64,000 nucleotides of DNA from a virus. Its lineage: Duplodnaviria; Caudoviricetes. The notes beneath the pieces are model-generated. The model saw only the letters and a list, made by a program, of their open reading frames with translations. It was not told the origin of the DNA and did no database searches. The DNA is taken from IMG/VR virus record IMGVR_UViG_3300021431_000086, positions 32,001 to 96,000 of that record, one strand, 5' to 3'. Positions 6,597 to 42,055 of the stretch are shown here, in pieces; position 1 is the first letter of the stretch; each line of letters opens with the position of its first letter. The position numbers were made by a program, and so were the translations under genes.

Positions 6597-6634
6597 CACA
6601 AGATAGCCCATGAGAGCCGCGAGGTCAAGGGCAA
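6597..6634 (-). promoter_or_regulatory. late-promoter-like motif copy 1 (portal)
   Basis: TTGCCCTTGA-N19-TATCTTGTG, ends 25 nt before the portal ATG. Confidence 0.75.
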
Positions 6635-6671
6635 GCGCGGGAGCAAAGACTGAGTGCCTTTGGTTTTGCGC

Positions 6672-6709
6672 TTGCCCTTGATTTCGCGTGTCGGTCGGAG
6701 TATCTTGCA
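6672..6709 (+). promoter_or_regulatory. late-promoter-like motif copy 2
   Basis: TTGCCCTTGA-N19-TATCTTGCA, ends 20 nt before ATG 6730. Confidence 0.75.
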
Positions 6710-6729
6710 GACAAAAAGCACACACCGAT

Positions 6730-7293
6730 ATGTTCTCATTCTTCCGTCGCAAAACGTACGGCAACGAGCCGAAGGCCGATGCCGCACCGCAGCCCCTCCG
6801 CATCGAGGGCATTCCCGAAGCACCGTTCACACCAGAGCCGGACGATGCCGAACTGGCAGCACAGGCCGTGCTCGAGCTGATGACCCGGGGCGGTCAGAGT
6901 AATCGGAATACTCCGAGTAATCAGAGTACTCCGAATACTCAGAATAATCCGACTGCTCAGACCACCGCCTACTACCGCGCCCTCGCCTCCCGCATCCGCG
7001 AGGCACACGCGAAGGCAGCGCGGCAGGCAACACGGTTCATCTACAACTGCGAACTGGAACTCCAAAAGCCACGTCTGCCGCTCTACGGCAGCGGCTCGGT
7101 GCAGATGCTGGAGACGGAACTCTACAAACGCATCGACATCATCGAGCGCGAGGGCGGCGAGCTGAAACTGCGCTGGCAGCACTGCCTCGCAGAAGTGACG
7201 GTCAGGCTGATGAACTCGGAACCACCAACATCAGAGAATGAGGTCACACAGGAAGCACAGAAAACACGGAAGGGTTTTGCCAAACACGGATGA
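6730..7293 (+). CDS. hypothetical phage protein (MFSFFRRK...)
   Basis: ATG 6730 follows the motif and an A/C-rich leader; contains an in-frame 9-mer array. Confidence 0.7.
   Translation: MFSFFRRKTYGNEPKADAAPQPLRIEGIPEAPFTPEPDDAELAAQAVLELMTRGGQSNRNTPSNQSTPNTQNNPTAQTTAYYRALASRIREAHAKAARQATRFIYNCELELQKPRLPLYGSGSVQMLETELYKRIDIIEREGGELKLRWQHCLAEVTVRLMNSEPPTSENEVTQEAQKTRKGFAKHG
6895..6960. repeat. degenerate 9-bp tandem array (TCMGARTAM-like)
   Basis: cagagtaat cggaatact ccgagtaat cagagtact ccgaatact cagaataat; similar arrays at 19052-19103 and 56043-56079. Confidence 0.75.
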
Positions 7294-7324
7294 CTTATAA
7301 TCTTTCTGTTTAACAAGAGCACAC

Positions 7325-7894
7325 ATGGCTGTATCACTACTCAGAGATTGGCAGGGACCCGACCGCTACGGCGACGACTTGCTGCTTTTCCACTTCGACT
7401 GGCGCGATGAGCGCGTTATGCGGTGGATAGAGAAATTGCCCGAAATCGGACTGAAGAACTCGCGCGAGAACGTGAAGCGACAGGGCATCGAGAGCAAGGG
7501 GGCGCACAAGGGTACGCTGCTCCGCTCGCTGGCATGGAAGACGTGGGCAGTGAGCGGCGGCGATGCGCAGGTGTTCGAGGCTCGCTATCAGTATTACGCC
7601 AAATTCGTGGAACTGGCTGTGGGAAGGGGCGAACCGTTCAAGCAACTGCCTCCGAACATTCCTGGTCCGAAGTGGCAACCCATCACCATGCCCGACGGAC
7701 GACGGCGAAAGGCGCGTCCGCACGTCGTCACGGAGATGCGCACCCAAGCCCGCAAGTTCTCCACCATGCTGCGCCGTCACTTCTCCTTCGTGGGTCTGAC
7801 GTACATGGCCTATGCGATGGGCGACAACAAGGCTGCCGCCGACACTGTGAACCGTATGCTCCTGGAGCCGGAGACCGACCAGCGGCGATTCTAA
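7325..7894 (+). CDS. putative neck / tail-completion protein
   Basis: 189 aa, directly upstream of the tape measure; GTLLRSL...YYAKFVELAVGRG...RRRKARP recalls HK97 gp10-like proteins. Confidence 0.5.
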   Translation: MAVSLLRDWQGPDRYGDDLLLFHFDWRDERVMRWIEKLPEIGLKNSRENVKRQGIESKGAHKGTLLRSLAWKTWAVSGGDAQVFEARYQYYAKFVELAVGRGEPFKQLPPNIPGPKWQPITMPDGRRRKARPHVVTEMRTQARKFSTMLRRHFSFVGLTYMAYAMGDNKAAADTVNRMLLEPETDQRRF

Positions 7895-7921
7895 GACACA
7901 TAACATACACATATTCGATAT

Positions 7922-10900
7922 ATGGCGACACGACACGAAATCACCAGTATTCAGTTTAAGGCCGATGCGGGCAAAGCCAATGCAGCCATCGACAGCATAC
8001 GTCAGAAAGCCAAGGAAGCCAACGACCAGATGACGCAACTGCGGCAGAAGTTGGAGGAGGGCAGAAAAGCCAACCTCCCCACCGAGGACTTGGCAAAGAT
8101 GGAAGCCCAACTGAAATCCGCCACTAAGGAGGCGAAGCAGTGGGGCGATGCCCAGCGCAACCTCATGCGAGGCGTGAAGGCGCTGGACGAAGCCATCATC
8201 CAGTTCAACCGTGGGCAGGGCTCGGTCGAGAAGATGTCGGCTGCACTCAGCAAGGCGGCACGCAATGCGGCGCAGTTACAGCAGAGCCGCATGGAGCGCG
8301 GGTCGCAGGGCTGGCAGGAGATGGAAGCACTCATCACGGCCTTGGATAAGAACCTGGTGAAGGCGCGGCAGGACTTCGACGGGCTGGTGCAGACCATCGA
8401 GCAGGGCGGACGTGTCAGTGTGTCGGAACTCTCGTCGGCCAAGCAGTCGCTGAAGGAACTCAGCGACCTCACGGCGTATGGCTCCGACGAGTGGAAGCAG
8501 TATCAGGCACAACTCAATACCGTCACAAAACGCTTCGACTCTCTCTCCCAGACCGAGAAGCGGCTGGCAGGGGAGATTGTCACCGTGGAGGATGCACGGA
8601 AGAGGGCGGCGGCGGCTGATGCAGACGAAGCACGATGGCGTGAGATATTGGCTGAGCGTTCCAAGCAACAGGCTACTGCCGACCGTGAACGCGCTGAGGG
8701 CGCACTGCAAATTGCTAAGACAAACACGGCATGGATCGAGCAGGATATTGCCAAGACGAAGGAGCAGTTGGCGGCACAGCAGCAGTTGGTCGGCTCTATC
8801 GAGGCGTTGGAGGATGCCGAGTCGCAAGCCATGAGCAAGACTATGGCGGCTGAGACGGCCCTGCAAAAGCAACGCGAGGAAACCAACAAGTTCTCCGATG
8901 CCACATGGGAGGCAGCTAAAAAGGTGGGAGAACTGGAGGCGAAGCTGAAAGAGTTGGAGGCGCAGCAACAATCCGTCTCTACCGACCAGCAGAAAGCCGA
9001 GGTTCAGCAGCAGCTCGCCGAGGCGCAGACAAAGCTCAACGAGGCAAAGATCGCCGCCGAAGGTCCTACCAAGGCACTGAAAGAGGCAGAAGAAGCATAC
9101 ACCGAAGCGCAGAAGAAGGAACAGGAAGCCACCGATGCATTGAACAAGGCGCGTGGGAACATGAATCTGGGCGAAGAGGAACAGAAACTCGAAGCCCTGG
9201 AGCGACAGCACGACGACCTGACGGAATCGCTACAAAAGCAGAAGCAGGCCGAGCAAGAACTGGCTGAGAACGCCGCCGACACACGACTGAAGGAACAGGA
9301 GGCTGTCATCGAACTGGCTCAGGCGCAGAACCAGAGCGAGGAGAGCCTGAAGAAGTCCGTAGAGGTGCTGGAGCAGCAGAACAAGACCTTGAAGGCCGGC
9401 TCAGCCGAATGGATGGAGAACGAACAAGCCATCGGCAAACTGAACAAGCGTATCGAGGAACTGAAACAGCAGTCGCAGGAGTTACGCGGTGAAGTGATGT
9501 CCCTCGCCGAAGCCGAGGAGTTGGCAGACAAGGCGATGGAGGAACAGGCGCTGACCACCAAGACGGGGTGGGCGGCGAGCACCGAGGAACTGAAACGTGC
9601 GGAGCAGACGCTGGCCGACAAGGTGGCGAAGGCAAAGCGCGGCACAGCAGAGGAGGAAGCGGCGTATCAGAAGTTGGTGCGCCAACTGCAAGCCGTGCGC
9701 ACGGAACTGGGTGCCGGCAGCATGAGTGGCAAGCAGATGATGGACGTGCTCAGCAACCCCAAGAACGTGACGAGCGTCGATACACTGAAGGCCGCCATCG
9801 GTCGTGCCCGTCAGGAACTCGATGCCCTCGGACGACGTATCGACCAGGCACGGATGGATGGACACACCAAGAAGGCGGAAGAACTCGCAGAGGCTTATGA
9901 TGACATTGCAGAGGGCGCGAAAAACGCCGACCAGCGCATGAAGGAACTGCAAGCCCAAAGTAAGGGCACTGCCTCTGCCTTCGACAAGGCGTGGAGCCGA
10001 CTGAAGACCTACGTGGGTCTGTACGTCGGTGCTGCCGTGGCGATGCAGAAACTTTCTCAGGCGATGGGCGACCTGATGACACTCTCGGACAAGATGGGTG
10101 AGGTGCGTAAGACCACGGGCTTCACCGCTGACGAGGTGGGACGGCTGAGTGGAAACCTGGCGAAGTTGGACACCAGAACTACGCTCACGCAACTCATGGA
10201 GCTGTCATCGCTGGCCGGTTCTGTCGGTCTGAAGACGCAGGAGCAGGTGCAGGGCTTCACCGAGGCTGCGGACCAACTGATTGTTGCTTTGCCCGAACTG
10301 GGTAACGAGAGCGCCCGCACGATTATCAAGATAGCAAATGCCACGGGCGACTTGGAGAAAAACGGTGGCGATGTGCGTGAGACGCTGGAGAAGGTGGGTT
10401 CTACCATCATCGCCCTGCGTGCCAACTCGGCTTCTGCTGCCGGACCTATCACCGACTTCGTGAGTCGCGTCGGTGCCGTGGGTGCCCAGGCGGGTATCAG
10501 CATTGACCAGATTGCTGCCCTCGGCAGTACGATTGATGCGCTGGGCGGTCGCGTGGAGATGTCGGCAACAGCACTCTCGCGTATGATTCCTGCCATCAAG
10601 AACAACTCCTTCGCCATCGCCAACAGCATCGGCGTGACGGAGAAGTACCTGAAGAGCCTGGCACCGATGGAGCAGATGGTGCTCATCTTCCAAAAGATGC
10701 GCGACAACATCCAGCACATCGACACCTCGACAGAGGAGGGCATGAACGCTATGGCCGACAACGTGGAAGCCATGCTGGGCAAGAACGCCACCATGCGCGA
10801 GGTGATGAAAGACCTCGAACAGCAGGGAGCCCGCGCCGGCATCGTCTTCGGTCTGCTCTCGCAGAACGTGGACGAACTGGAGAAGCAACTCGGCATCGCC

Positions 10901-15649: not shown

Positions 15650-15690
15650 CCCATTTACGATTTGACGATTTACAATTTACATTTTTTGAG

Positions 15691-15720
15691 AAGGGCTGCG
15701 CATTGCGTGGCCTTTTTCTT
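15691..15720 (+). terminator. intrinsic terminator after the tape measure gene
   Basis: GGCTGCG..CGTGGCC hairpin followed by TTTTTCTTT. Confidence 0.6.
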
Positions 15721-15757
15721 TGCCCTTGACCGCGAGGCCCGGAATACCGATATTGCA
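15720..15757 (+). promoter_or_regulatory. late-promoter-like motif copy 3
   Basis: TTGCCCTTGA-N19-GATATTGCA, ends 17 nt before ATG 15775. Confidence 0.75.
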
Positions 15758-15774
15758 GACAAAACATAACGACT

Positions 15775-17040
15775 ATGCTGATTACCACACAAAACGAGAT
15801 TATCAGTCTGATGCCAACGGCACGGTGGGACAGGCCGCAACAACTCTTCGGGTATATCGAGGAGGAAGAGGCGGTGGCGTTGGTGCCGCTGTTAGGCGAC
15901 GGGTTGTACCAGCACTTGCTCACGGAGTACGACAGGCTTCGCAGTAAATATACGGACATTACGGCCACGACCGTGCGGCCCACGGGCAAAGCGAGACAAG
16001 ACCCTCAGTTGGCTCATGCCGATGTGACGGAACGCTTAGAGCAAATTCAGCAGGGCCGCTACCGAGAGACGTATGAGGGTGCTGCCGAGGGCGAACAGAA
16101 GGTGTCCGACGAGGATATGCTGACAATACGGCTTATCCGCATCTGCCAGCAGATTGAGTTTTACAAGATGCTCTCGCACAAGGCAGGAATGCTGACAGTG
16201 AACTTCAACGAGGGCGGCGGCATGAACATGGTTTCCGCCGACGGCTACGAGTCTGCCGACGAGAAGAGGATGGAGAGAGTGGTAAAGGATGCCTACATGA
16301 GTGCCGGACGGGCGGTCGATTCGCTGCTGCTGTTTCTGGAAGCGGACGCGAAGGGGACAAAGCAGTTCACGGAACTGTGGAGCGAGGCGGATGCTTTCTA
16401 CCTGCACAAGGGCTTGCTCTTCCAGACGGCACGGGTGCTGAACGAATACTTAGACATTAAAGGGGAGCGGATGGCGTATGTGCAGTTGGTGAGGGATATT
16501 CGCTTCTGTCAGGACACGTACTTGAAGCCGAGGGTGGGAGCAAAACTGCTGAAGGCGGTGGTGGAGTGGGCGAATCTCGGCGGCGAAACCGCCGAGCAAA
16601 GTGGCAGCGGCGATGGTTCGGTGCTCAGCGATTCCGTCGCTGAGGAGTTGCTGAGTCTCTTGCGCACAGCCCTGGCTTTCTATGTGGAGAGCCGACGGAC
16701 GACTATTACGCAGACAGCCCTGCTTACAGGTTCCGGGACATACGCTACCGCCAGTTCGCAGAAGGATATGAAACTGGCCCGGCGCGACAGCATGACGGAC
16801 GCGCAGCAGGCGATGGCGATGGCGTGTCAGTTCATCGAGGAGAACCTGGACGCGCTGGGCGAGGCAGCCGTGGGTACACCTATATATAATAACGTGCGTG
16901 CGCGTGAAGAACAGGAGGCGAAGGACAAGGCTTGTGCCTGTGCAGCAGAAGCACGGAGACGGAAAGAGGCGTGCAGGCAACGGAATAGGAAACTGTTCAC
17001 GGCTTTTCCGATGACGCACCGAACCACGGAGCACAATTAG
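15775..17040 (+). CDS. DUF6712-like virion morphogenesis protein (head-tail adaptor-like)
   Basis: MLITT..EI...EEEE...LVPLLGD.LY, 'AVDSLLLFLE', and a second repeat 'QDTYLKPRVG..L'; pattern recalled for DUF6712. Confidence 0.6.
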   Translation: MLITTQNEIISLMPTARWDRPQQLFGYIEEEEAVALVPLLGDGLYQHLLTEYDRLRSKYTDITATTVRPTGKARQDPQLAHADVTERLEQIQQGRYRETYEGAAEGEQKVSDEDMLTIRLIRICQQIEFYKMLSHKAGMLTVNFNEGGGMNMVSADGYESADEKRMERVVKDAYMSAGRAVDSLLLFLEADAKGTKQFTELWSEADAFYLHKGLLFQTARVLNEYLDIKGERMAYVQLVRDIRFCQDTYLKPRVGAKLLKAVVEWANLGGETAEQSGSGDGSVLSDSVAEELLSLLRTALAFYVESRRTTITQTALLTGSGTYATASSQKDMKLARRDSMTDAQQAMAMACQFIEENLDALGEAAVGTPIYNNVRAREEQEAKDKACACAAEARRRKEACRQRNRKLFTAFPMTHRTTEHN

Positions 17041-17105: not shown

Positions 17106-17143
17106 TTGCCCTTGACCCACGGCGCAACGGATTATAAATTGCG
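17106..17143 (+). promoter_or_regulatory. late-promoter-like motif copy 4
   Basis: TTGCCCTTGA-N19-TAAATTGCG, ends 28 nt before ATG 17172. Confidence 0.75.
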
Positions 17144-17171: not shown

Positions 17172-18956
17172 ATGATTTCAAGAACGTATTTCACCGAAAC
17201 CTTCTACGACCTGGAGGTAGGCATCGCGCAGCGATTTGCCGAAGCCATCCGTGCCGCGTGGCTGACGGGCAAGGACTTCGAGGGAGAGAAGAAGCAAGGT
17301 TTCTTCCTCTCGCTGAAGGGGAGCAAGTCGGCTAAGGGAGGGTTTCAGGATAAACTCTATGTGGGCAATATCCACAGGATTGAGAATCATCTGTACTGGC
17401 GCGACGAGGAACTGGCTGACGACGACGAAATTGTGAACGTGGTGGCCATCGACGGACCGGTGACGCGCGACGGCGACGGATGCTCGTATGGCTCGAAAGA
17501 CCATCGCGACCAGATTATGTATGCCAACACCATTCCGCAGGTGAAGGGACACATCTTCATCATCAACACGCCGGGCGGTGCTGCTTCGGCCCGCATCGAC
17601 TACGAACAGGCAATTGCCGACTGCCGCGAGAAGGGGAAACCGACTGTGGCGTGGGTGGATGGCATATGTTGTTCGGCGGGTCAGTTGGTGGCTGCGCTGT
17701 GCGACCGAACTATCGTGATGAACGGGCGCAACACGATGGGATGTATTGGCACAATGTGCGCCTTCTGGGGCGTGCCGCACAACACAGTGGATCAGGACGG
17801 CTACCGCTACATCGAACTGGTGAGCGTGACCTCGCCCGACAAGAATGCAGAATACCGCGAGGCGGTAGATGGCAAGACGGAGAAACTGCAAGCCGAACTG
17901 GACAGGCTGGGCGAGGAGTTCCGCGAAACGGTGCGCCAGAACCGGCCGCTTGTGAAGGAGGAACACCTGACGGGCAAGACCTTCGATGCCGACGAGGTGA
18001 TGGGTGCGCTGGTGGATGAAGTGGGCGACTACAACCGCGCCATCCAAGCCGTGTTCGACCTGGCGGGCGGAAGCCTGAAGACAGCCAGAGAAGCAACCGT
18101 CATTGACGAACCTACAGAAGGCGGAGAGCCCGAAGAGCAGCAAGACATGGCGACGCTGAGTGAACAGCAGAAAGGAGCCGTCGCTGCCAATGCCGGAGCC
18201 ACGGTCATTGTCGATAAAGGACACGTGAAGAAAAGCGTGGACTCCATATTTGGTCCGGAAACAGTTGAAATCGGAAACACCACCCCAAACAATACCGCTA
18301 TGACAGAACAAGAGAAGAAGGCCGCTGAGGTTGCCGAGCAGCCAGCAGCCCAGCAGGAGGAACAGGCTCCTGCAACGGAACAGCCTGCCGAGGAAGCACC
18401 CGTGACTGAAGCACCCGCTGTCGAAGAGAAACCCGCTGAGGAGGAAACTCCGGTGCAGGGGGAAGCCCCCGCACAGGAGGAATCCGCAGGACAGGCGGAA
18501 GCACTGGCCGCTGCCGAAGCACTCATTGCCGAGCGCGACAAGGAGATTGCCACGCTGAAGGAAAACCTCGCCACACTGGAAGGCATCAAGGACGAGCGCG
18601 ACCAGGCCAACGCCACCATCGCTGAGCGTGAGGCCACCATCGAGACCGTCAACGCTGCCATCGAGGAAGGCAAGGCCACCATCGCGGAGCGCGACAAGAC
18701 GATTGCCGAGCACGTCGCCACCATCGCCGCCAAGGACGCAGCCCTCGCCGAGAAGGATTCGCTCATCGAGAAACTGACAAAGCAGGCAGCCGAACTGAAG
18801 GCCGAGGTGAAGGAACTCAGTGAGAAACCCGCTCCGATGGTCAATGCACAGGCCGGCGTTCCTGCAGACAACGGCACGGGCGAAGCTCCGAAGCAGAAGC
18901 AGCGCATCAAGAGCGGCATGACCTACAAGGAAATCCGCGCTATGCAGAAGAAATAG
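17172..18956 (+). CDS. S49-family prohead protease with C-terminal coiled-coil scaffold-like region
   Basis: IDGPVTR, INTPGG, KPTVAWVDG.CCSAG..VAALCD, GCIG are S49/SppA motifs; acidic linker and heptad repeats follow; lies upstream of the capsid gene. Confidence 0.85.
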   Translation: MISRTYFTETFYDLEVGIAQRFAEAIRAAWLTGKDFEGEKKQGFFLSLKGSKSAKGGFQDKLYVGNIHRIENHLYWRDEELADDDEIVNVVAIDGPVTRDGDGCSYGSKDHRDQIMYANTIPQVKGHIFIINTPGGAASARIDYEQAIADCREKGKPTVAWVDGICCSAGQLVAALCDRTIVMNGRNTMGCIGTMCAFWGVPHNTVDQDGYRYIELVSVTSPDKNAEYREAVDGKTEKLQAELDRLGEEFRETVRQNRPLVKEEHLTGKTFDADEVMGALVDEVGDYNRAIQAVFDLAGGSLKTAREATVIDEPTEGGEPEEQQDMATLSEQQKGAVAANAGATVIVDKGHVKKSVDSIFGPETVEIGNTTPNNTAMTEQEKKAAEVAEQPAAQQEEQAPATEQPAEEAPVTEAPAVEEKPAEEETPVQGEAPAQEESAGQAEALAAAEALIAERDKEIATLKENLATLEGIKDERDQANATIAEREATIETVNAAIEEGKATIAERDKTIAEHVATIAAKDAALAEKDSLIEKLTKQAAELKAEVKELSEKPAPMVNAQAGVPADNGTGEAPKQKQRIKSGMTYKEIRAMQKK

Positions 18957-18960
18957 CAGG

Positions 18961-18995
18961 CTCTCCCCCGGCCCCTCCCGTAAAGGGCGGGGGAG
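18961..18995. repeat. REP-like GC palindrome
   Basis: CTCTCCCCCGGCCCCTCCCGTAAAGGGCGGGGGAG hairpin just after the protease stop. Confidence 0.45.
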
Positions 18996-19011
18996 TAGTT
19001 GCCTCTGCTAC

Positions 19012-19049
19012 TTGCCCTTGACCCAAGAAGGCACTATCAGTATCTTCGC
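19012..19049 (+). promoter_or_regulatory. late-promoter-like motif copy 5 (capsid)
   Basis: TTGCCCTTGA-N19-TATCTTCGC. Confidence 0.75.
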
Positions 19050-19157: not shown

Positions 19158-20585
19158 ATGGCTTACGCACTTTCTGTAGCACAGATCACTTCCGTCAAGG
19201 AACAGATCCACCCCGAGCTGGTAGCCAAGGCCTACCTGCTCACCGACTCCATGTTTGAGGACCTGGGCGTGAAGGTGACAACCGATGTGGAGAACATCGA
19301 CACCTGTTACCTCTTCAACCGCAAGGGTCTTCAGGCCCGCCCCTACGTCGTCGGCAACGTGAAGGACAGCGAACTGGGCAAGTTCGTTGACAACCCCGCC
19401 AAGGTGGAGAAGATTTATCTCCACACTGCCGACTCCATCGAGCGTTATACTGAGAAGGGACCCTTCGATGTGACTAACGTAGCCGAGAGCGCAGAGCACA
19501 CCACCTTCCTGCTGAACGAACTTTCGGGTCGCCTCGCCGAGGACACCCGTGCCAACTTCTTCTTCGGCAGCCTCGCCAACCGCAAGTTGGAGGAGAGTCA
19601 GGAGAACGCTGTAAGGAACGGCCTCGCCCTTTTCGATGGTGTCTATACCATCATCGCCAAGCGCCGTACCGACGGCACCATCAGCAAGCAGAACGGCAAC
19701 CTCATTGAGACTGGCGACATCGCCGGACTGGAGGCTGACCAGGTTTACGAACTGCTCACAACCTTCTACGGCGGCCTTTCCGCTGCGCTGAAGAAACCTG
19801 AGCGGACAATCTTCATCTACGCCTCTGACGAGTTCTGCCGCAAGGCCGTGAAGGGCTACATGCTCACCTATCCACAGATTGCTCCCACCGTGCTGCAGGC
19901 CGGCTGGAAGTTCGCCGAAATGCCTAACGTGGTGCTGAAGACCAACTCCGCTATGGGTAAGGGCGGACAGCTCATCGCAACCCTGGAGGGGAACATCGAG
20001 TTCCTGTGTGACAACCGCGAGAATGCCGCACTCATCAGCATCGGCCAGGTGAACAAGGACCTCCGCGTCTTCGACTACCAGGCCAACGGTCGTGCCACTG
20101 TCCGCATCCGCGACTTCAGTCCGGAGGTGTTCGCAACCAACGATGCCGTGAACACCTACACCGATCTGCCTGTAGGCGACTACATCGCCAACATCTTCAC
20201 CGCAACAAGCGCGAACGAGAAGATGGGCACGGTGGCTATCACCAGCGGACAGAAGGACCTCTACGACGAGGGCGATGTCATCACCGTGAAGGCCACTCCG
20301 AAGACGGGCTACGTCTTCATCGGCTGGAGCGACGGTGGCAAGACAGAAACCTACAACTACACCTTCACGGGTGGCGTTGTTGACCTGCAGGCCCGCTTCA
20401 CCGAGGAAGTGCCTGAGAACGGCAACGAAGGTGGCGGCAGCGCCGAGACTCCCACCTACACAGCCGTAGAGAACCCCTCTGGCAACCCCGCTGAGCAGGG
20501 CTGGTATGAGAAGAGCGGCGACGTGTATTCTCTGACTGAGGACACCGAGGTAGAGTCTGGCAAGACCTACTACGAGAAGGACTAA
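19158..20585 (+). CDS. major capsid protein with C-terminal InlB-B/Ig-like extension
   Basis: Follows the protease; strong codon bias; LFDG..TII motif; tail 'MGTV...EGDVITVKATPKTGYVFIGWSDG'. Confidence 0.75.
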   Translation: MAYALSVAQITSVKEQIHPELVAKAYLLTDSMFEDLGVKVTTDVENIDTCYLFNRKGLQARPYVVGNVKDSELGKFVDNPAKVEKIYLHTADSIERYTEKGPFDVTNVAESAEHTTFLLNELSGRLAEDTRANFFFGSLANRKLEESQENAVRNGLALFDGVYTIIAKRRTDGTISKQNGNLIETGDIAGLEADQVYELLTTFYGGLSAALKKPERTIFIYASDEFCRKAVKGYMLTYPQIAPTVLQAGWKFAEMPNVVLKTNSAMGKGGQLIATLEGNIEFLCDNRENAALISIGQVNKDLRVFDYQANGRATVRIRDFSPEVFATNDAVNTYTDLPVGDYIANIFTATSANEKMGTVAITSGQKDLYDEGDVITVKATPKTGYVFIGWSDGGKTETYNYTFTGGVVDLQARFTEEVPENGNEGGGSAETPTYTAVENPSGNPAEQGWYEKSGDVYSLTEDTEVESGKTYYEKD

Positions 20586-29493: not shown

Positions 29494-32400
29494 TACTCTT
29501 CCTCAATAAAATACCATGTTCCATTATTCTTCTCCGTGTCAGACAGGGCATCATACTGCGCCTCGGTAAGTTGCACAAATATGCTTCCCTCAAACTCTGC
29601 CAGCTTCACAAACTGGGTCCCGTCCCAAGCATAGTCAGCATAAGAGTTAGTGCCAGGAACCCTGTAAATCTTATTGGCAACACCCGTGGATGGGAGAGCA
29701 CCTATAATCACATCATTATGGATGGTGCTCACAAGGTTGTTGACCTCAGTCTTCGTGTATGTGCTGGTCTTGTCTGCCTTCTGTTCAAGGGCCTCATACA
29801 CACCTCCAGAAGTGACAGGGCGGGTGCTGTTGATTGTGGGGGCAGGGTCAAAAGTCAAGGCATCCTGCTTCCCACTGAACGTAGCGAAGTCCTCCTTAGT
29901 CAGCACACCTGTCTTGTTTGCCGAAGCATTAGGGATAGGCACTTCTGCCGTCTGCTCCGAAGCATCGACTGTCACTTTGTAGATGTTCGGTTCTACATCA
30001 ACGCTGACACTCTTTATGCCTCCCACCTCACTTGTGGATGCTGTCTTCAGGCTTATCGTAGAACCACTAATGCTTATACCATCACCTGCTGTAGGTGCAG
30101 GGGAATTAGTTTGTACATACTCCTTGACTCCTTGCCATGTGGGTATCTCCTTGGCAGCGGCACTTGATGTTGCGGAAGGAGCACCTTTGACACTCCCCAA
30201 TTGAACCACATCTACATCTGAGGTTCCTCCATTTGTTGCAATAGTGACCTTCTTGCCTTCTACAATGTTGTAAGTCTCGTTGTTGGAAACAGATGTGACA
30301 GACTGGGCACTCTTATCTGCCTTGCCACTTATGTCCTGAGCCGTCAGGTAAGTGTTATTGTCAACACTTCCATCTGCCTTTAGGAACTGGGAAGATGTGC
30401 CACCTGTTTTCTTGAATGAAGTGGCTTGAACTTGTGCAGGAAATGTGGCATTTTGAGAGGCATCAAAAGCATATATATGACCAGTCTTTGCCATAGTGGA
30501 AGGAGTTGCCCAACCTACTCCTCCGTATCCAAATATTTTATAGATATATAGTCCTGATGAACTACCAGAATAGCCTGTGCATCCGAATATAAATTGCCAC
30601 TCACCATATTGTGAGCCTTTAGTATTACCATAGGTAGCAGTCCCGACAATATTAATGACATTATATCCAGTCCAACCTGTGATAGGAACTTGGTCTGCTC
30701 GTGTAACCCATGTATCTACATTATTCTCATAGTTCTGCTGGGTTCTGCAACGAATAGTACAATAACAGCCAGTAGAACCATTTGTTCCGACAAAGATGAT
30801 AAACTTATTTAAGACGGTATATATTCCAGCGGCACTTGTGTGAAGTGTCACACGGAGCATATAATCGGTAGAGCTACCTCCTGCTGTTGAACTCTTCCCG
30901 ATGTAAAAGTTTCTACCAGAGGAGAACAATCCGACCTTCGCATCATCTGTGGCCTCATAGTCAAGCCAAGTTTCCCCACCATCAGTAGAATATGCGACAA
31001 CAATGCCTGCAGCTTTGGCGAACATAGTTCGGGGTGCCCCAAGCTCAGCAACTAAAGCAGCATCAATTGGGCCATAGTTCCCAGCAAAGTTTTTGCCTCC
31101 CCACGCAAGATACGCTTCATATTGTGTAAGCTCTGAAGCATTAGCTAAGTTACCATTACCAAGTACTACTTGGTTAGCATTCCCTCCACTCGTTATAAAC
31201 TTGGCAGCACTTACATGGTTACTATCATTAATAGTCACACCACTATTCTGTAAATTTCCAGATGTGCCATCATATCTCGCGATAGCATTGTCAGTAGATG
31301 TTGTTGGCTTGGTTGGAGCCTTTCCCTCTATGTATGCAGCAATAGCGGCACTATCTGCTATCTCTCCATTGCCACCTGGGTCTAACTCATCCCTAATGTC
31401 CGTTGGCTGTATGGCAGTAGAACCCTTGCTTGCACCACTGCGGATTTCATTCAAGTCGGATATGGTGTCTTGTTTGCCCGAAAGTTTAGTATTCAGGGCA
31501 TACCATGAGGGAGCCACATAGGGCCGTTGCGCTGTACCTGGTGCATAGGAGGTGACGACTGTGCCAATGGAAACATTGTCAACCTTGACATCAGTCTGTC
31601 CATTAGCAGGAGTGCCTTCGCTTGACTCTGTTGCATCTGAGTTGTACTTTTCAAGTTCTACCTTCCCTACCGCCTGTGCCTGGTTGACCCACACCCTTAT
31701 GGCACCTCCCTTGTAGTAAAACACAGGATGCTCCATGCGAAGCTCCACGGCAGTAGCACTATAGGCTATACCAAAATAGATGTATATCTTACCATCCTCA
31801 GTTGAGGGCAATGTCTGCACATAGGGAGTATCAGCATCTATGATTGCACTACCATCACTCTGTGGGGTACACTTGATATAGACAGGCGCCTTTGTTGTGA
31901 GGGCAAGGGCAGCACCAGTTCTGTTGAAAGAGTAGCCAAGAGTGATGGCATACTGTTGCCATATAGCAGTGGCAGTCACATCGGCATTGGCGGCAAATGC
32001 AGAGGTGGAATGGCAGTACACAATAGGGCCGAATGGGTTGATTGGCCTCTGGTTCACAGCCTTTGCAGATGTGGCATTGTTGGTAGAATCCACACTTGAA
32101 GGAACCCAATGAGTGTTGTCCGCAGAGGTAAAGAGCACCTTGTAATACCTGAAGGCATCAGTGGTCTTAAGAATACCATTGTTAGTCCTAAGTTGGTAGC
32201 CGATGGTATTGGTGTTGCTGTCATATCCCCTGTAACAGTCCCAGCACCCACCACTCACTCTTGTGCTGTTATAGACAAAGAGCATGGTATATGCCTTGTT
32301 GAAGATGGTGGTGTCCCTTGTAGCATCAGCAAGGTTGGTATATACAGGCTTTGCCCCAAGTCCGTTGATGTTCAGTGTAAACCCACTTGCACTTGTCACC

Positions 32401-33050: not shown

Positions 33051-33054
33051 GACC

Positions 33055-33636
33055 TCACACCTCAACAAAATCCATTAATAGAATATCCATATCCGTCCCT
33101 CTCTCGCGAATCTTCTTGTTGTTAAATCTCGCGTATAGAAGGGGGCACCAGTCATCAAGAATCCTTGGAGAGCATACGGAGGCATATCTCTCTTCGCAGG
33201 ACGGCTTGTAGGCGAAGTCGTAGTCAACCTCCCAGTTGTAGAGGTTGCGGCCAAACCAGAATGTGATGTTCGGATAAGACTCTTCAAGCGCCTTGCACCA
33301 TTGCGCAAAGAGCTTCCTCGACTCCGCCGTGCAATCCTTCCGGCTGCGTACATCATGCACAACGCGGACAACGGTGTCCCCCTTGTAGTCAAGCCATTGG
33401 AGACTCCCCTGTATGTCATACAGTGTGCCATAGTCAAAAGCATTATGCACGACATGCGGCTCACCGCCTATGGACTTCAGACGGAGGTCGAAGCAACGGA
33501 CACCATGTGCATACTGCGCTCCAATAGCCAGGTTCTGACACCGGGCCGTGAAAGCAATCATCCTCTGCCACCGTTTTTGGGGTGGCAGGTAACTCCATGA
33601 GTTGTGACTTCCTAATATGTATAACTTCTTCTCCAT
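33055..33636 (-). CDS. PI-PLC X-domain-like phosphodiesterase
   Basis: GSHNS...ARCQ..I..QY.HGVRCFDLR...VVH matches the PI-PLC catalytic His motifs. Confidence 0.7.
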   Translation of the reverse strand: MEKKLYILGSHNSWSYLPPQKRWQRMIAFTARCQNLAIGAQYAHGVRCFDLRLKSIGGEPHVVHNAFDYGTLYDIQGSLQWLDYKGDTVVRVVHDVRSRKDCTAESRKLFAQWCKALEESYPNITFWFGRNLYNWEVDYDFAYKPSCEERYASVCSPRILDDWCPLLYARFNNKKIRERGTDMDILLMDFVEV

Positions 33637-33637
33637 G

Positions 33638-33835
33638 TTAAAACCCGCAAACGTCTATAATGTCCTGATACGTCAGCTCTGATACATCCTGTAGGTCTCC
33701 CATTGTGTCAAGCATGTCCTTGTGTTCGGACACCTCTGTGCCAAGCGCATTCCACTCTTCAGCGGCAATCTGGTAGGTTGTGTCCGTTACTGGCCGCCTA
33801 TTAATCTTGTGAAAGTTAATCTCATTGTAGTCCAT
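33638..33835 (-). CDS. small hypothetical tail-region protein
   Basis: 65 aa containing AAEEWNAL, packed in the operon. Confidence 0.6.
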   Translation of the reverse strand: MDYNEINFHKINRRPVTDTTYQIAAEEWNALGTEVSEHKDMLDTMGDLQDVSELTYQDIIDVCGF

Positions 33836-33839
33836 AGTG

Positions 33840-36800
33840 TCATGTAGTTATGTCGTCAAGCCCAAGAGTATATCTATCATAGTAGCCACGAGTAGTTGAA
33901 GAAATAGACCATGCAATAATTTTAGTGCCATTATCGTCAAACTCCTTACATTCAAGAGTTATATAATCCGTCGTCGGAATTGGGTCGCCGACAAAGTATG
34001 CTTCTTCTGGATTTACATTGTTTATGGTGTTCGCATTTTCAACTTCCTCATAAATTCCACGAATATATAATGCTGGGCCGCCCTTTACGGTTGAACTTCC
34101 TGTATATGCAGATGCACCATAAAAAGACAATGTTATTTTAGTTCCGAGCAATTCCCGTGCATCATTAGCCATTTCCCCAATAAATTTGTTTAGGTAATGA
34201 ATCCAATCGGGATTATTAAGTACATTCTCTCCATCGGCCGTATGATAAGTTTCGTCATATAACATTGTTCCTACATTAGATGACCCACCGTATGAAGCAG
34301 TTATGTCCGATTTGAAATTTCTATATAATCCAAGTCCATTGTAGGACACATTATTCTCTTTCGATGGAAACCAAGACATATATTGAGAACGCCCATAAAT
34401 ATCATTTGATAGGGGTATAAAGAATGGAAGGTTTATATAGAAGTCTCCTGAAACTTGACCATTAAAGTCTGCATAATCTTCTACTGGTAAACCATCGTCT
34501 AAATACCCGTACCCCGTTGGGAATACATATACATCGCCTTTATATAATGTTCCAGAACCGCTATAATAATATTGATTCCCATCTGGTGTCGCATAAAAGG
34601 CAAAACTTTGTCCAAGATTTTTATATTGTATAGTATTCTCATATTCCCCCGTCCATGCACTAACTTCCCTCTTCGTAAAGTCTTTTATATTAAACTCATG
34701 AAGAATAGTAGTCTTATGGGTAACAAAACCGCTAAAATTTCCTTTCATTGCATCCACCGTGCCATCGGCAAACACCTTGAAGGTGGCGCTGTCGGCATCC
34801 TGCCCACCGCTCCACAGATAATACTGTTTGCCATCGCCGTCCACACGGTTGCCCATTCCGGCGAGGACAGTTCCGAGGTTGTCCGTAATCACAAAGTTAG
34901 AGCCTGTGAGCATCCGTATGTAGGCATTCTGGGCAATGAGGTAGGTGAAGAATGCGCTGAGCGCATTGACAGAGATGGGCTGGAACGGAGCGCGTGTCAG
35001 ATTCAGGTCTCCGGCAAGCGTCCCACTGCCCGTTGTTGTGAGATATTGAGTCAATTCCCCAGGTGTCAGGAAAGTAGCCGCCAAGTCCAAGTCGCTGTCG
35101 CTCTGATAATGGAACCCGTAGATGCACTCATACGCCATGTAGCCGCTCTGTACCAAACTCTGCGGATAGCCAACAACGATGTAGTCTTTATATCTCACGG
35201 CGACGGCAGTCTCAGTCCCGTCAAAGAAGTTCATGCCATTAGGAATGACATTCTGATGCACGCGGACAACGGGGCCAGCAAGCCCCTTGTCTCCCTTGTC
35301 ACCCTTGTCTCCCTTTGCCGCCTTGATAAGTGGAATCTCCTTCTTGATGAGGTAGGTGTCCACCATCTCGTCAGGATTGGAGGCGTTGATACTTGATGCT
35401 GCGAACAGCTCCACTACATCAACCGAACTCTCAATCTCCCTGTAGGGCATGGAGAAGATAGCAAGGTTTGCACCGTTGAAGAGCAGTGTTCGCGTGTCAC
35501 CCGTCCGCTTATACACCCGGCAATAGCATGGGAAGGCAGCGCGGACACCGCCGTTGTCGGTATAGAATCTGATGGAGCCGCCAAACTCTCCCTTGTCAGT
35601 CGCCGTGTCTATGGCGATGTAGTCCTTCTCCGTCTGGCAGATGTAGTTCACGCCCGTCTCACCATACACACCGATGACGTGTGGAGCTTCTGTCTCTTTG
35701 ACTCCATCTGGCAAGATGGCATCCTCGTAATGATCCCCGATATCGTCTATCGTCCCGTCGATTAGAATGGGATATTGTAGCGTCTTGCGCCACATGTAAG
35801 GGCGGAACTCGTTAAAGAAGTATGCGCTTTCTTCGTTGGAAAAGAAAGACTGGTCCGGGTTCCAGTACACAAGCTCCGCGCCCATTCCAACACCGCCTTC
35901 ATTCAGATCCTTTGTTTCGCTTGTCGTATAATAATGTATGTCTCGTGTTGCCGGAATGAAATTGACGGTCACAATTGCAAGTTCCACATTTGTATTATTG
36001 ACAACCAGATGTACATTAAGACTCTTCCGAGATGCAAATGCGGTGATAGGAAGAACTGCTTTTCCGGTGGTTGCGCCGGAGAAAACAAGCGGAGTGTCAT
36101 CGCTACTATCCTCGCTGTCAACGGGATCATAGAAAAGTGCAAGGCCGGCCGTCCTGAACCATGCCTCATTAATATAGAATACACTTCCGTCCTGGGCAAT
36201 AGAGCGGATAAAGATGTTGATATTGTTTTCCGGGATATATCTTCCAGAGGTGTCGTCGTAGCTTACGGTCCCCGAGGATAGTTCAATCTCGAATTTTTCC
36301 TTTGTCTCGGCAATTATAGTAATGGTGCCTGTGGCAATTGTGGAAAAACCGGTAATCTCCGACTCGTCGGCAACGCATGCTGATATATAGAATGTTGCAG
36401 AAACAGAGGCCGAGAAGTCGTCGGTTCCGGAACTGCCAGCCTCATGCTTCAGCTCTATGCTATCTGTAAATCCATTAGCCTTACTTGCGTTCCACTGGTT
36501 GTCCGTGTTTGTATTGCCGGTATTCCTTGTAATCATCCAGCGGTCAACACTCGTAGTTGCTGCCTCGTCAAATCCTTTTATCAGAACCGGACTAAGAATG
36601 ATACTCCCCCCCCATCTCAGGTATGGAACGCCTGCATCCATGCCCTCACTTCGTATTTCCACGCGCAGCGGCAGAGAGTCGGGGTCAAGGCTCCATTCCT
36701 TGTTGTACTCGTCTGTGCCAAGTATTCCCGTGTCAAGGTTCACGGTACGCAGGTTGTTTTCTGGAAGACTGACCTCCCCCATGCGGACATACCAGTTGTC

Positions 36801-37169
36801 AGGGTCTATTGTGCCGTAATAATCCCTGCTCTCGCCGTCGGTGGTTACGCATGGGTATTTGTCCGTCCACTTCGACCCTCTCATCTCCATCGGCGCAAAT
36901 ACCAGGTAGGCATTGCTATTGTCGGACTTTGAGAGGCGGGCATAGATAGTGTAGGGCTTCCCACTTTCCGCCAATCTTCTGTTGCGTCCTTTCAGTGTCC
37001 ACTCCTGATATGTGCTATCCACCATACCAATACCCGCGCGTCCAGACCACACCTTGATTTTGGCGCCATTCGCTATGTACACAGACAAATCGTTGTAAGA
37101 GTTGTTGGAGTTGGGCGTGATACTGATTGCGGATGGGGCTATATAGTGAACTGGTGATGTGCGTGGCAT
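33840..37169 (-). CDS. large tail / baseplate-associated protein with short collagen-like repeat
   Basis: About 1109 aa from MPRTSP; KGDKGDKGDKG; 'WSGG...ATFKVFADG...KGNFSG' tail module; late motif upstream. Confidence 0.7.
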   Translation of the reverse strand: MPRTSPVHYIAPSAISITPNSNNSYNDLSVYIANGAKIKVWSGRAGIGMVDSTYQEWTLKGRNRRLAESGKPYTIYARLSKSDNSNAYLVFAPMEMRGSKWTDKYPCVTTDGESRDYYGTIDPDNWYVRMGEVSLPENNLRTVNLDTGILGTDEYNKEWSLDPDSLPLRVEIRSEGMDAGVPYLRWGGSIILSPVLIKGFDEAATTSVDRWMITRNTGNTNTDNQWNASKANGFTDSIELKHEAGSSGTDDFSASVSATFYISACVADESEITGFSTIATGTITIIAETKEKFEIELSSGTVSYDDTSGRYIPENNINIFIRSIAQDGSVFYINEAWFRTAGLALFYDPVDSEDSSDDTPLVFSGATTGKAVLPITAFASRKSLNVHLVVNNTNVELAIVTVNFIPATRDIHYYTTSETKDLNEGGVGMGAELVYWNPDQSFFSNEESAYFFNEFRPYMWRKTLQYPILIDGTIDDIGDHYEDAILPDGVKETEAPHVIGVYGETGVNYICQTEKDYIAIDTATDKGEFGGSIRFYTDNGGVRAAFPCYCRVYKRTGDTRTLLFNGANLAIFSMPYREIESSVDVVELFAASSINASNPDEMVDTYLIKKEIPLIKAAKGDKGDKGDKGLAGPVVRVHQNVIPNGMNFFDGTETAVAVRYKDYIVVGYPQSLVQSGYMAYECIYGFHYQSDSDLDLAATFLTPGELTQYLTTTGSGTLAGDLNLTRAPFQPISVNALSAFFTYLIAQNAYIRMLTGSNFVITDNLGTVLAGMGNRVDGDGKQYYLWSGGQDADSATFKVFADGTVDAMKGNFSGFVTHKTTILHEFNIKDFTKREVSAWTGEYENTIQYKNLGQSFAFYATPDGNQYYYSGSGTLYKGDVYVFPTGYGYLDDGLPVEDYADFNGQVSGDFYINLPFFIPLSNDIYGRSQYMSWFPSKENNVSYNGLGLYRNFKSDITASYGGSSNVGTMLYDETYHTADGENVLNNPDWIHYLNKFIGEMANDARELLGTKITLSFYGASAYTGSSTVKGGPALYIRGIYEEVENANTINNVNPEEAYFVGDPIPTTDYITLECKEFDDNGTKIIAWSISSTTRGYYDRYTLGLDDITT

Positions 37170-37181
37170 TCTTTTTTTAAA

Positions 37182-37220
37182 TGCAAAATAAGCGACGAAG
37201 TGGGTGCCGGTCAAGGGCAA
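37182..37220 (-). promoter_or_regulatory. late-promoter-like motif copy 6
   Basis: TTGCCCTTGA-N20-TATTTTGCA, ends 12 nt before ATG 37169. Confidence 0.75.
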
Positions 37221-37224
37221 GCCT

Positions 37225-37262
37225 CTGCCCTTGACCGGCGAACATTGGTGAGATAAATTTGT
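37225..37262 (+). promoter_or_regulatory. late-promoter-like motif copy 7
   Basis: CTGCCCTTGA-N19-TAAATTTGT, followed by hairpin TGCCGATA..TATCGGCA and ATG 37313. Confidence 0.72.
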
Positions 37263-37312
37263 TCTGTGCCGATAATGTATATCGGCATGAAAGAATAACG
37301 ACTAATTCGTAT

Positions 37313-40300: not shown

Positions 40301-40849
40301 TATGGCATTATATACTCTCTACTCGACAACAAAGGCAAAGCCCACGACGTGTTGTTCACTCCAATCAAAAATAACGGGGACGTCTTGACCCCAAGTGAAA
40401 TGGAAAACTATGCAACATATTTCAATGGTTTTTCCATGGGTTTTGCATCTTCGTATGACCATGAGGCTTACGCCTTGATGATAGATATTGACACATCGGA
40501 GAGCAGGTCTTCGCTCCTGCAGGAACTACAGGTAATGTACTATGCCGATAGCACGGAGAATATACAGCCAATAAGTGTAAAAGACAATCCGCGCTATCTT
40601 GACATCACAACGCCGAATCTGCGCGGCCGGGGCTTGTGTGACAAATTCTACAAGGAATACAGCTATTGGATGAGGAATGCACGCATCGCCAGGAGGAAAG
40701 TTCCCATAGGGATGGCGCAGCTGCTCTCCATTGATAAAACGGTACGTGTCAACGTGGGTGACATTACAGGTTTTATTCTGAAAATGCAATACACCGTAAG
40801 CAACAAGACGGGACTGGGAATGGTTGAAATGGATATTATGTACATCTAA
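37313..40849 (+). CDS. putative tail tip / baseplate hub protein
   Basis: About 1178 aa; N-terminal 'SITITDTSEIF..G..WSHSFSLNIPAN..IFG' and C-terminal 'GL..KFYKEY..W' as in Bacteroidota phage tail proteins. Confidence 0.6.
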   Translation: MEHLSLEIFDREGTGSKYAWLPEDASITITDTSEIFASGDVWSHSFSLNIPANVHIFGTSGDLHGSRLHDQINKRKARLWVEGLPLYMGYLMLDDEVDVDENGNVDVRFESGNKTFDEMIKGTKAREVSVGDVVIGVALNRKRVVGIKRPCGVFRLDGLAAYVAKNHHHEGLDGYFCYFSVGKYDEWVRTPYAQRWPKLVKSHGNIYDSNGIAENKDYTNVQMPYDAGHPFCNINICYPLKATKITDGQSEEVAGRGYTIRLAHGTATTDGGDRQTRFNNSPNFYLLHFVDRLFKDLGIHVAENQALNVEDLRRVFMLNYGCHYEEIEDEYEDDEMDSHATPRKKVGRYGQFYLPLIQTGSGRAGGYLPVAGWENAGKQVLADEEIIGKALLRDLVLKERGSVIQNFGSVECRIATAQSNIPSFPFEGGLQFELIKDEHEEETGGYSAYLAYATGENYPNVEISEIVNAMKSMFGIRLIFDSDYSTVRIVLLRNILRNSDVQHINCDVLPAIKQENNIRGFRMTYGKGSDSTSFYYKGFADLFVRSAKIWKDTTDKHDYSKWNLDADYDIINSQVSAFNKTCYVTPVNGNAYGVQVDEDEDVLFPSLFEWAGFMDAEDGDCSGADETVEEIQCVAAPVIMNEINGTYASLFDSDLKAPSGAAQKIGTFARATYQPQELTNETVYAGMDIASNYTISGKLEIFLSEGFQIRMLDNYAISNGGTPFDEADPGLCFGIMRGSGSDAHVRYYEDQDDGEENDAWEIVPGNGAIVHPDTCDSYGNEWDYDGATGYKRVCTSPADAVEAMSAMFPDTHFSLTTRSSSTYMTGFFLPAVTDNTGKSHTLLMAGATKDQSPLMPGIMRQQYINDLQGKSIEQILEWDTNHYNLLIETDSSRERAQTLLNLQKLAYSNGGPVTVSGGTDVSQGRFSLKLRAEKLNPNFDPNRPEYRTVETKAEAAETMTEMFEGSNADLLNRPKISGTVMRAKGWDVNEDGYFTLYGIIYSLLDNKGKAHDVLFTPIKNNGDVLTPSEMENYATYFNGFSMGFASSYDHEAYALMIDIDTSESRSSLLQELQVMYYADSTENIQPISVKDNPRYLDITTPNLRGRGLCDKFYKEYSYWMRNARIARRKVPIGMAQLLSIDKTVRVNVGDITGFILKMQYTVSNKTGLGMVEMDIMYI

Positions 40850-40879
40850 AAAGCGATTACATCGCAGTATAGACACTGT

Positions 40880-42016
40880 ATGGCACAAAACATAGTAACG
40901 ATTTCAGGGATGTTCGGCGACGACAAGACATATTTTGCCGGCTCACCCGTAGTGATAGGCATTCATGGGCTGGAATGGCCTGAAAGCAGTCCGTTCACAA
41001 TCGTACATATCGAGGTTTTATATGACAACAATATAGTGGGCAGCTTCCGGGCCGATGCTGGAGGACAGACTGAAGTCAGCATTGATATTGGCTCTGCCCT
41101 CCGGGCAATATGGAGCGACTATACATTTGCCAAGGAGGTTGAAGCGGCGAACAATGCTGCAGAATCCGCTGCATCTGGAGTATTCACCCCAAGCGGAGGG
41201 AGCGACTTCGATGCAAATGGGATTAGAAAATACCGCACATATTACCTGCGGATTAGCACTGAGTATTTGTCCAGCGATGACGGCGGCGTGTTCACTGTCA
41301 CGCAGTGTGTTGACCAGAACGGGAACACGAACATACCAGGGGGGAGGTGCATGATTGGGTGGCTCACGGAATGGGAACGCAGCAACATCGTGGACGAAGC
41401 GGATGCCGACGCCTCTCATCTGGAAAATACGAACCAGCGCGACGGAGACGCCAGCACAAAGCCGACAAGCACACCTGAACGGGTTGGCAGCCAGAGCATC
41501 ACATCCTGGGTGGATGTGAGCAACAACGGGACGCAATGTGTGTTCTATGCTCACGAAAACGGCTCACCCGACAGCCCCGCCTCCCATGCACCGATTGTAC
41601 TACGCGATAGCATTCCATACACAGACTTTCTCTTCATCAACCGTCGCGGAGCCATCGAAACATGCAGCGGCATGACGAAGGAGACTATGGAAATAGACGT
41701 GAACGTCACACAATATGCTCGCGTGGAACAACCTACGTTCCGCCCCAGCCGAAGTCTGATGGCCTTCGGCACCGACGGCAGACGGTCGTGGCAGATGTCC
41801 AGCGGCTACGTTACCCGCGAGTGGGCCGACTGGTGGACAATGGAGTTCCTGAGCGGTAAGCGCAAGCAGTGGTGGATGCGCTACCGGCGCGACGGCAGAG
41901 ACATGTTTGTTCCCGTCATCGTAAAGCCCGCCAAGAACAGCGTCAGCATCTACGACAAGACAAAACAGCAGATGCCGCATGTGGACTTCACAGTGACACT
42001 GGCGCTGGAGGGGTAG
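40880..42016 (+). CDS. putative distal tail-like structural protein
   Basis: 378 aa; C-terminal FLFINRRGAIET...SSGYV...W..EFLS. Confidence 0.55.
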   Translation: MAQNIVTISGMFGDDKTYFAGSPVVIGIHGLEWPESSPFTIVHIEVLYDNNIVGSFRADAGGQTEVSIDIGSALRAIWSDYTFAKEVEAANNAAESAASGVFTPSGGSDFDANGIRKYRTYYLRISTEYLSSDDGGVFTVTQCVDQNGNTNIPGGRCMIGWLTEWERSNIVDEADADASHLENTNQRDGDASTKPTSTPERVGSQSITSWVDVSNNGTQCVFYAHENGSPDSPASHAPIVLRDSIPYTDFLFINRRGAIETCSGMTKETMEIDVNVTQYARVEQPTFRPSRSLMAFGTDGRRSWQMSSGYVTREWADWWTMEFLSGKRKQWWMRYRRDGRDMFVPVIVKPAKNSVSIYDKTKQQMPHVDFTVTLALEG

Positions 42017-42017
42017 G

Positions 42018-42055
42018 CTGCCCTTGATTTTTGTGGGCGATATTTCGATATTGCG
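42018..42055 (+). promoter_or_regulatory. late-promoter-like motif copy 8
   Basis: CTGCCCTTGA-N19-GATATTGCG, ends 24 nt before ATG 42080. Confidence 0.72.

Follow-up and report, generated by a model that had tools for sequence, protein, structure and literature searches.

Virion, packaging and lysis operons in a family of large rumen phages share a two-box motif that is very probably a phage-specific class of promoter

The phage contig and its genes

This study concerns a 64,000-nt stretch of phage DNA (the window; IMG/VR record IMGVR_UViG_3300021431_000086, positions 32,001–96,000) and a two-box motif, YTGCCCTTGA followed by a TAnnTT-type box, that is found there ahead of virion and lysis genes. 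In the assembled genome it corresponds to the minus strand of G000:C50:29858-93857. Contig C50 is 125,820 bp long, looks like one large phage, and lies in a 3.1-Mb genome of 99 contigs; this host genome was ~88% complete, and the phage contig was inferred to belong to it by binning.

Most proteins of the contig had no match in Pfam or PHROG. According to the earlier, sequence-only reading of this DNA, each motif copy points into a virion or lysis gene. Database matches bore this out for a 2575-aa tape measure protein (PHROG 167), an S49 prohead protease (Peptidase_S49 and PHROG 53), a 2049-aa giant protein (BspA-LRR) and a 149-aa coiled-coil membrane protein (holin/spanin-like PHROG entries). 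Two other assignments stand less firmly: a 605-aa protein is presumed to be the portal from a weak tblastn match, at 24% identity, to the portal of Polaribacter phage Leef_1, and a 475-aa gene is presumed, from its position only, to encode the capsid protein. Megablast of 16 kb against deposited phages gave no match, and the nearest deposited phage was Leef_1 through its portal.

The contig also codes for DNA methyltransferases and carries plasmid-type Rep3, ParA and AAA+ loader genes. Many relatives of 100–145 kb were found in IMG/VR. This family of uncultured phages, ~100–145 kb in size and from rumen Bacteroidales, probably consists of phage-plasmids.

Number and placement of the motif

YTGCCCTTGA occurred exactly eight times in the window, at the places named by the sequence-only reading (Table 1). 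In shuffled sequence the mean was 0.41 and the maximum 2, and none of 100 shuffles reached eight. The second boxes were also as first quoted: they followed after 19 nt (20 nt only at 37220 on the minus strand), across spacers unrelated to each other. All eight copies lay between long open reading frames (ORFs), and each faced a gene start 48–145 nt downstream, so that the description of them as intergenic and gene-facing held throughout.

Table 1. Two-box units and the terminator in the window (window coordinates)
Feature	Position	Strand	YTGCCCTTGA box	Downstream gene or remark
Unit TTGCCCTTGA-N19-TATCTTGTG	6597..6634	-	6625-6634	Faces 605-aa presumed portal gene, 4754-6571 (minus)
Unit TTGCCCTTGA-N19-TATCTTGCA	6672..6709	+	from 6672	Faces 187-aa gene and 2575-aa tape measure gene; orthologous sites in relatives
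Intrinsic terminator, 14-bp stem then U run	15688..15718	+		-20.5 kcal/mol, z = -4.2, 0/200 shuffles as stable
Unit TTGCCCTTGA-N19-GATATTGCA	15720..15757	+	from 15720	Faces 421-aa gene, 15775-17040; orthologous sites in G001, G003, G004
Unit TTGCCCTTGA-N19-TAAATTGCG	17106..17143	+	from 17106	Faces S49 prohead protease gene, 17172-18956; orthologous sites in G001, G004, G005
Unit TTGCCCTTGA-N19-TATCTTCGC	19012..19049	+	from 19012	Faces 475-aa presumed capsid gene, 19158-20585; longest leader, 145 nt
Unit TTGCCCTTGA-N20-TATTTTGCA	37182..37220	-	37211-37220	Faces block 33840-37169 (1109 aa), onward to 1185-aa and 2049-aa BspA-LRR proteins
Unit CTGCCCTTGA-N19-TAAATTTGT	37225..37262	+	from 37225	Faces 1178-aa and 378-aa genes; sole window site with canonical TAnnTTTG
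Unit CTGCCCTTGA-N19-GATATTGCG	42018..42055	+	from 42018	Faces 149-aa coiled-coil membrane protein and 125-aa gene

The whole contig held 11 canonical copies and one variant, and eight is thus the count for the window and not for the phage. The three canonical copies beyond the window lay at window-equivalent positions -21404, 66832 and 70934. The variant, GCCCTTGC with a gap of 21, lay at window-equivalent -28676 and headed a maintenance-region operon; together with a copy that headed a small accessory cassette, it stood outside the classical virion blocks. All 11 TGCCCTTGA 9-mers on the contig were bipartite, inter-ORF and gene-facing, and for 10 of the 11 a gene start lay 48–145 nt away by our own ORF calling. 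The called ORF was 476 nt from the -21404 copy, with an uncalled ATG ~50 nt downstream of that copy, and 231 nt from the 66832 copy. Elsewhere in the genome ~105 further TGCCCTTGA 9-mers were present without a second box.

The 6672 unit is the divergent partner of the portal unit, with 38 nt between the two boxes. Such back-to-back copies, read as divergent promoter units, had 3–38 nt between their boxes; the box itself is asymmetric and contains no dyad. The tape measure unit is closed by the terminator in Table 1, one base short of the box at 15720, and this strong structure abutting the box indicated a transcription-unit boundary at 15720. No hairpin before the other boxes was significant against shuffles. 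A GC-rich hairpin (CCCCCGGCCCCUCCC...GGGCGGGGGAG, 18965–18996) was seen just upstream of the 19012 box (z = -1.3, not significant against shuffles), and a similar GC-rich hairpin lies ahead of the portal box at locus L020.

Comparison with host promoters

A host consensus was built from 1130 upstream regions of host ORFs, in which 471 TAnnTTTG boxes were aligned. It had three parts: a TTTG whose G preceded TA by 21 or 20 nt, the box TAtCTTTGCa and, 13–17 nt past TA, an A-rich stretch. In the phage box TTG occupied the host -33 position, with 21 nt from its G to the TA of the -7 box; the phage sites shared with host promoters the TA..TT core, the TAtC preference and the A-rich stretch in the start region. 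The position of TTG, TAtC and the A-rich stretch indicated the architecture of a promoter for the host enzyme, in line with the sigma-A-like geometry first proposed.

The phage sites also departed from the canonical Bacteroidota sigma-A promoter (-33 TTTG, -7 TAnnTTTG) in several respects. The five bases before the phage TTG were invariant (TGCCC), giving a GC-rich upstream side where host DNA is A/T-rich; an A followed TTG; and the first T of the host TTTG was always C. The gap was rigid instead of 19–21 nt: in six genomes (this phage and five relatives) 61 sites had 20 nt from GCCCTTG to TA, and each other gap from 14 to 26 nt gave 0–4. Among these 61 family sites the -7 box was a canonical TAnnTTTG in 5, TAnnTTG in 34 and TAnnTT followed by A, C or T in 22, so that 56 of 61 lacked the host terminal TG. 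With the host octamer at only one of the eight window sites, the proposal of a weakened -7 box was well founded.

In host upstream regions TTG-N19-21-TAnnTTTG was found 243 times in sense and 84 times in antisense orientation, and the form with the short -7 box 13 versus 10 times. To judge from these counts, the short -7 form does not appear to serve host genes. A search of the 3.0 Mb outside the phage contig for GCCCTTG-N20-KAnnTT gave 14 matches, of which 12 fell within open frames (reversed control, 5). Matches so few and mostly inside open frames indicated that this ~88% complete genome, paired with the phage contig by binning, contains no host regulon, and the extended, invariant -33 box was phage-specific, as had been supposed.

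Taken as sequence evidence, these comparisons suggest that the two-box signal is very probably a phage-specific promoter class.

Conservation in relatives

Five complete IMG/VR relatives (G001–G005, portal identity 96% to 49%) were compared with this phage (G000) after ORF calling and orthologue matching. A motif search of the whole genome and its relatives had been put forward as a check on the sequence-only reading. It returned 8–12 sites in each relative (reversed-pattern control, 0–1), before the same operons; all listed sites had the 20-nt gap, and GCCCTTG was invariant.

Orthologous units headed by the motif in several or all of the six genomes were those of the portal, the 187-aa/tape measure block, the 421-aa gene, the protease and a 160-aa gene. 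The presumed capsid gene lay downstream in the protease block, and a direct box of its own was seen in G000 only. In G000, G001, G004 and G005 a back-to-back pair separated the orthologues of the 1109-aa and 1178-aa genes. A back-to-back pair also occurred in G002, but with no 1178-aa orthologue behind the plus-strand box, and no pair of the 1109-/1178-type was found in G003. The p218-p99-HU operon had a box variant, GCCCTTG followed by C or T, at 14 of 16 loci. The motif also stood before the block that in this phage holds a Mom-family gene, an endolysin gene and a 649-aa presumed terminase gene. The first two, Mom-family (E 4e-34) and Amidase_2/PG_binding_1 endolysin, lie at window-equivalent -17651 to -16388 (L012:4426-5689, minus), in an operon under the -21404 copy. 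In phage Mu, mom is likewise a late, activator-dependent gene.

An unbiased test used the portal. With 23 loci picked by portal homology alone, plus the window, 24 regions (21 distinct) were available. GCCCTTG-N20-TAnnTT lay 55–139 nt before the portal start in 24 of 24, whereas spacer and flanks diverged. The result is a clear phylogenetic footprint on both boxes and on the distance between them. In a pattern scan of IMG/VR single hits dominated (an estimated ~110 by chance), and only contigs of the same family were added.

This pattern bears on the idea that the sites are junction, recombination or packaging repeats between gene modules and not promoters. We consider that idea highly improbable: only two short boxes are common to the copies, the DNA between and around them is unrelated, the copies aim into genes that start 47–145 nt away, and the second box and start region mirror host promoters.

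Near the 160-aa gene (p160, a conserved acidic protein) a further element was noticed. A perfect inverted repeat, TTTTGCGA-N5-TCGCAAAA, overlaps the -7 box of the p160 promoter at window-equivalent 70934–70981 (L010, upstream of 8395-8877, minus). It is nearly unchanged in G001, G002 and G003 and may be an additional operator or a hairpin at the 5′ end.

Promoter classes on the phage

The motif was absent from window positions 1–4686 and 43022–64000, in keeping with the original statement that the early regions hold no copy, and the long minus-strand arrays at 43–66 kb and 71–93 kb also contained none. Canonical host-type promoters were found in the maintenance region, at the contig end and, in nearly all relatives, before p224. 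The two sets together indicated a phage with at least two promoter classes. The motif class accompanied virion, packaging and lysis genes and three less obvious units; judged by the genes it heads, it probably acts late.

In the small-gene arrays themselves (window 43022–65929 and window-equivalent 71747–93536, minus), very few canonical TAnnTTTG promoters were seen in intergenic gaps. The non-virion block on the minus strand opens with a gene for a 192-aa DUF4494 protein (window 43723–44301, minus; E 1.4e-50), which was present in all six family genomes.

The Rep3 and ParA genes, both of plasmid type, make it likely that the phage has a silent carried state, and the box might then be the operator of a phage repressor acting over the -33 element, which would silence virion genes in the plasmid state at promoters that otherwise need no help. 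Many scattered asymmetric operators are possible for a repressor, as in phage P1. We nevertheless think this improbable. Repressed promoters normally have good core elements, whereas here the -7 box is off-consensus at 56 of 61 sites; beyond the constraint on TTG itself, an operator gives no reason for a single exact gap to -7; and none of the phage proteins was identified as a repressor.

A proposed mechanism

We favour, with a little better than even confidence, a mechanism in which the host RNA polymerase and a host sigma factor act on a weak -7 box with the help of a phage factor bound to TGCCCTTGA. The host core enzyme, most likely with the primary sigma, would take TAnnTT as a truncated -7 element and start in the A-rich stretch ~6–10 nt past that box. 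Having a -7 box without the host terminal TG, the promoter would probably be too weak alone. A phage-encoded specificity factor of monomer type would read the asymmetric yTGCCCTTGA (about -41 to -32, including the host-like -33 TTG) and so activate the promoter, resembling a class-II activator or a sigma 'appropriator' such as T4 MotA/AsiA. The outcome would be joint activation of the virion, packaging and lysis operons.

The asymmetry of the box and the variable gaps between paired copies indicate that each box works alone, always in the same orientation and equally far from its own -7 element; such a fixed arrangement leads one to expect contact with RNA polymerase or sigma, or a sigma factor itself, and not a dimeric operator. 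The need for a factor is suggested by the 5 canonical -7 boxes among 61, the lack of enrichment of the short form in the host, the lack of a host regulon, and the canonical promoters on other phage genes.

Several observations weigh against the proposal. Transcription starts at the sites, late timing and dependence on a phage factor are all points that we infer from sequence. For three copies the genes downstream are not clearly late ones: the accessory cassette (66.8 kb), p160 and the p99-HU operon. The TTGACC-17-TAnnTT half of the motif also scores as an E. coli-type sigma-70 promoter. The searches for a reader were negative as well. Six-frame searches with Sigma70_r2 (PF04542), Sigma70_r4_2 (PF08281) and Sigma70_r4 (PF04545) found 22–25 host loci and none on the phage contig; Mor (PF08765) had no match in the genome; and MotA_activ (PF09114) had none on the contig, an uninformative result as control genomes also gave none (AsiA was not searched). 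A search of ~60 proteins against Pfam and PHROG left the candidate readers unnamed except for the HU-like fold of p174, and the structural model of one candidate, p224, had no PDB or BFVD match by Foldseek. The sequence-only reading had likewise recognised no factor, and the searches with sigma-70-family and Mor models now extend this to the whole contig.

Some of the same facts are what would be expected if the unmodified host sigma-A holoenzyme read the sites, the box being the family's preferred strong -33 element and timing coming from a repressor, RNA regulators or replication. TTG and TAnnTT are at the host positions, and the sigma-70-like score fits. Promoters of Bacteroides phage B124-14 are reportedly constitutively active in uninfected Bacteroides. 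Middle promoters of phage phi14:2 are active in vitro with sigma-70 holoenzyme alone (Drobysheva et al., bioRxiv 10.1101/2020.03.07.982082), so that a phage factor may be dispensable. Still, we regard a role for sigma-A alone as unlikely: the host seems not to use the short -7 form and has no such promoter in 3.0 Mb, and canonical promoters are in use elsewhere on the phage. Moreover, if sigma-A needs only TTG and 19–21 nt, it is hard to see why the five further bases TGCCC should be invariant and the gap fixed at 20 nt across relatives with 49% portal identity.

Alternatively, a very divergent phage sigma could replace the host sigma and read the boxes as -35 and -10 elements, as do SPO1 gp28/gp34 or phiEco32 gp36. 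A bipartite, asymmetric and spacing-locked motif is what a sigma reads, and the three sigma models used could miss one that has diverged as far as T4 gp55. This seems to us quite unlikely, given that those models matched host genes and nothing on the phage contig, and that the second box keeps host preferences (TAtcTT and the A-rich start), which point to host sigma.

Three other kinds of site were considered and rejected. A sigma-54 promoter differs in gap and boxes (TGGCAC-N5-TTGC), an integration host factor (IHF) site has a different box (WATCAANNNNTTR), and a dyad operator does not agree with the varying gaps between paired boxes.

Candidate reader proteins

For the favoured mechanism, host polymerase assisted by a phage factor, candidates were taken from the 19 proteins common to all six genomes. 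The basic, non-structural ones were the HU-like p174 (Bac_DNA_binding, E 6e-9), p99, p224, p129, p374 and p398. Mean identity of p99 was 71%, above the 65% of the portal. A module of p224, p99 and p174 was kept in 19 of 19 loci examined; in this phage it lies at window-equivalent -30205 to -27207 (L012:15245-18243), where p224 is divergent from p218, p99 and the HU-like 174-aa protein, and this synteny held in 19 of 19. Divergent transcription from a canonical host-type promoter suggests that p224 is probably early.

The confident AlphaFold model of p224 (pLDDT 91.9) shows an orphan fold with a basic C-terminal three-helix domain. Its best VIA-align Z, 5.0, covered the last three helices only, among winged-helix, helix-turn-helix (HTH) and sigma-region-4 rows, and is too low to mean anything alone. 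For p99 the AlphaFold model was poor (pLDDT 62), and a PDB profile search and ESM Atlas gave no match.

All 19 IMG/VR loci with p224 belonged to the same phage family, and for p224 only 44 representative clusters were counted worldwide. From distant homologues no IMG/VR loci were obtained, and among 400 further genomes from the order only one gave a weak match. With so few independent lineages, the co-occurrence of p224 and motif was uninformative, and p224, p99 and the HU-like p174 are only leads.

A more specific version of the mechanism would make one of these leads a new sigma appropriator: p224 (or p99, perhaps with the HU-like protein) would dock on host sigma-A/RNA polymerase and retarget it from the -33 TTTG to TGCCCTTGA. 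We put this forward as a speculation and consider it rather unlikely.

Comparison with known systems

Late or middle promoters with phage-specific boxes have long been known (T4 MotA, P1 Lpa, Mu C, the SPO1 sigmas). A close parallel is the T4 middle promoter (MotA box and AsiA). In both, a host-type downstream element is kept and the -35 region holds an asymmetric phage box at a set distance; in T4 a monomeric phage factor reads this box along with host sigma, as is proposed here. Unlike T4, this phage has a -33/-7 Bacteroidota host; its box retains the host-like TTG and stands before virion and lysis genes, where the T4 box serves middle genes.

Phages P1 (Lpa), Mu (Mor/C) and P2 (Ogr) each use a small phage activator on scattered late operons whose promoters have a usable -10 and a poor -35 element, and P1 is also a phage-plasmid. 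Their activator sites, however, are dyad-symmetric or placed elsewhere, whereas the copies described here are asymmetric and independent of one another, and no Mor-family gene was found.

The TGTCCCA, TGTCTTTT, TGTCCTTT and GTTAAAYGGATGACA boxes reported from other Bacteroidales phages differ from this one in sequence, and here the -7 element is shortened as well. A precedent comes from the crAss-like Cellulophaga phage phi14:2, whose middle promoters carry an extended motif and are transcribed by host RNA polymerase (Drobysheva et al., bioRxiv 10.1101/2020.03.07.982082). As described there, it resembles the present phage in being a Bacteroidota phage with an extended motif of -35- and -10-like blocks before virion genes, the portal gene included, conserved in relatives; the likeness is one of layout. 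Unlike phi14:2, the present phage belongs to an unrelated family with other structural genes and without a crAss-type virion RNA polymerase signature; its giant proteins contained no conserved DFDxD-type virion RNA polymerase motif.

A full-text literature search found no description of this motif or of transcription in this phage family.

Significance

To our knowledge, the timing of late genes in Bacteroidota phages is largely unknown, and no late activator has been characterised for the phylum. The motif marks a clean regulon of ~10–12 operons per genome across a family of large rumen phages, and it is an aid in annotating late modules where most phage proteins lack database matches. With it comes a short list of conserved candidate readers. 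A phage-only promoter silent in uninfected cells would, if real, provide an orthogonal expression switch for Prevotella and Bacteroides. If the sigma appropriator proved true, phages of this phylum would have their first described late-gene switch, and Bacteroidales a portable orthogonal promoter/activator pair.

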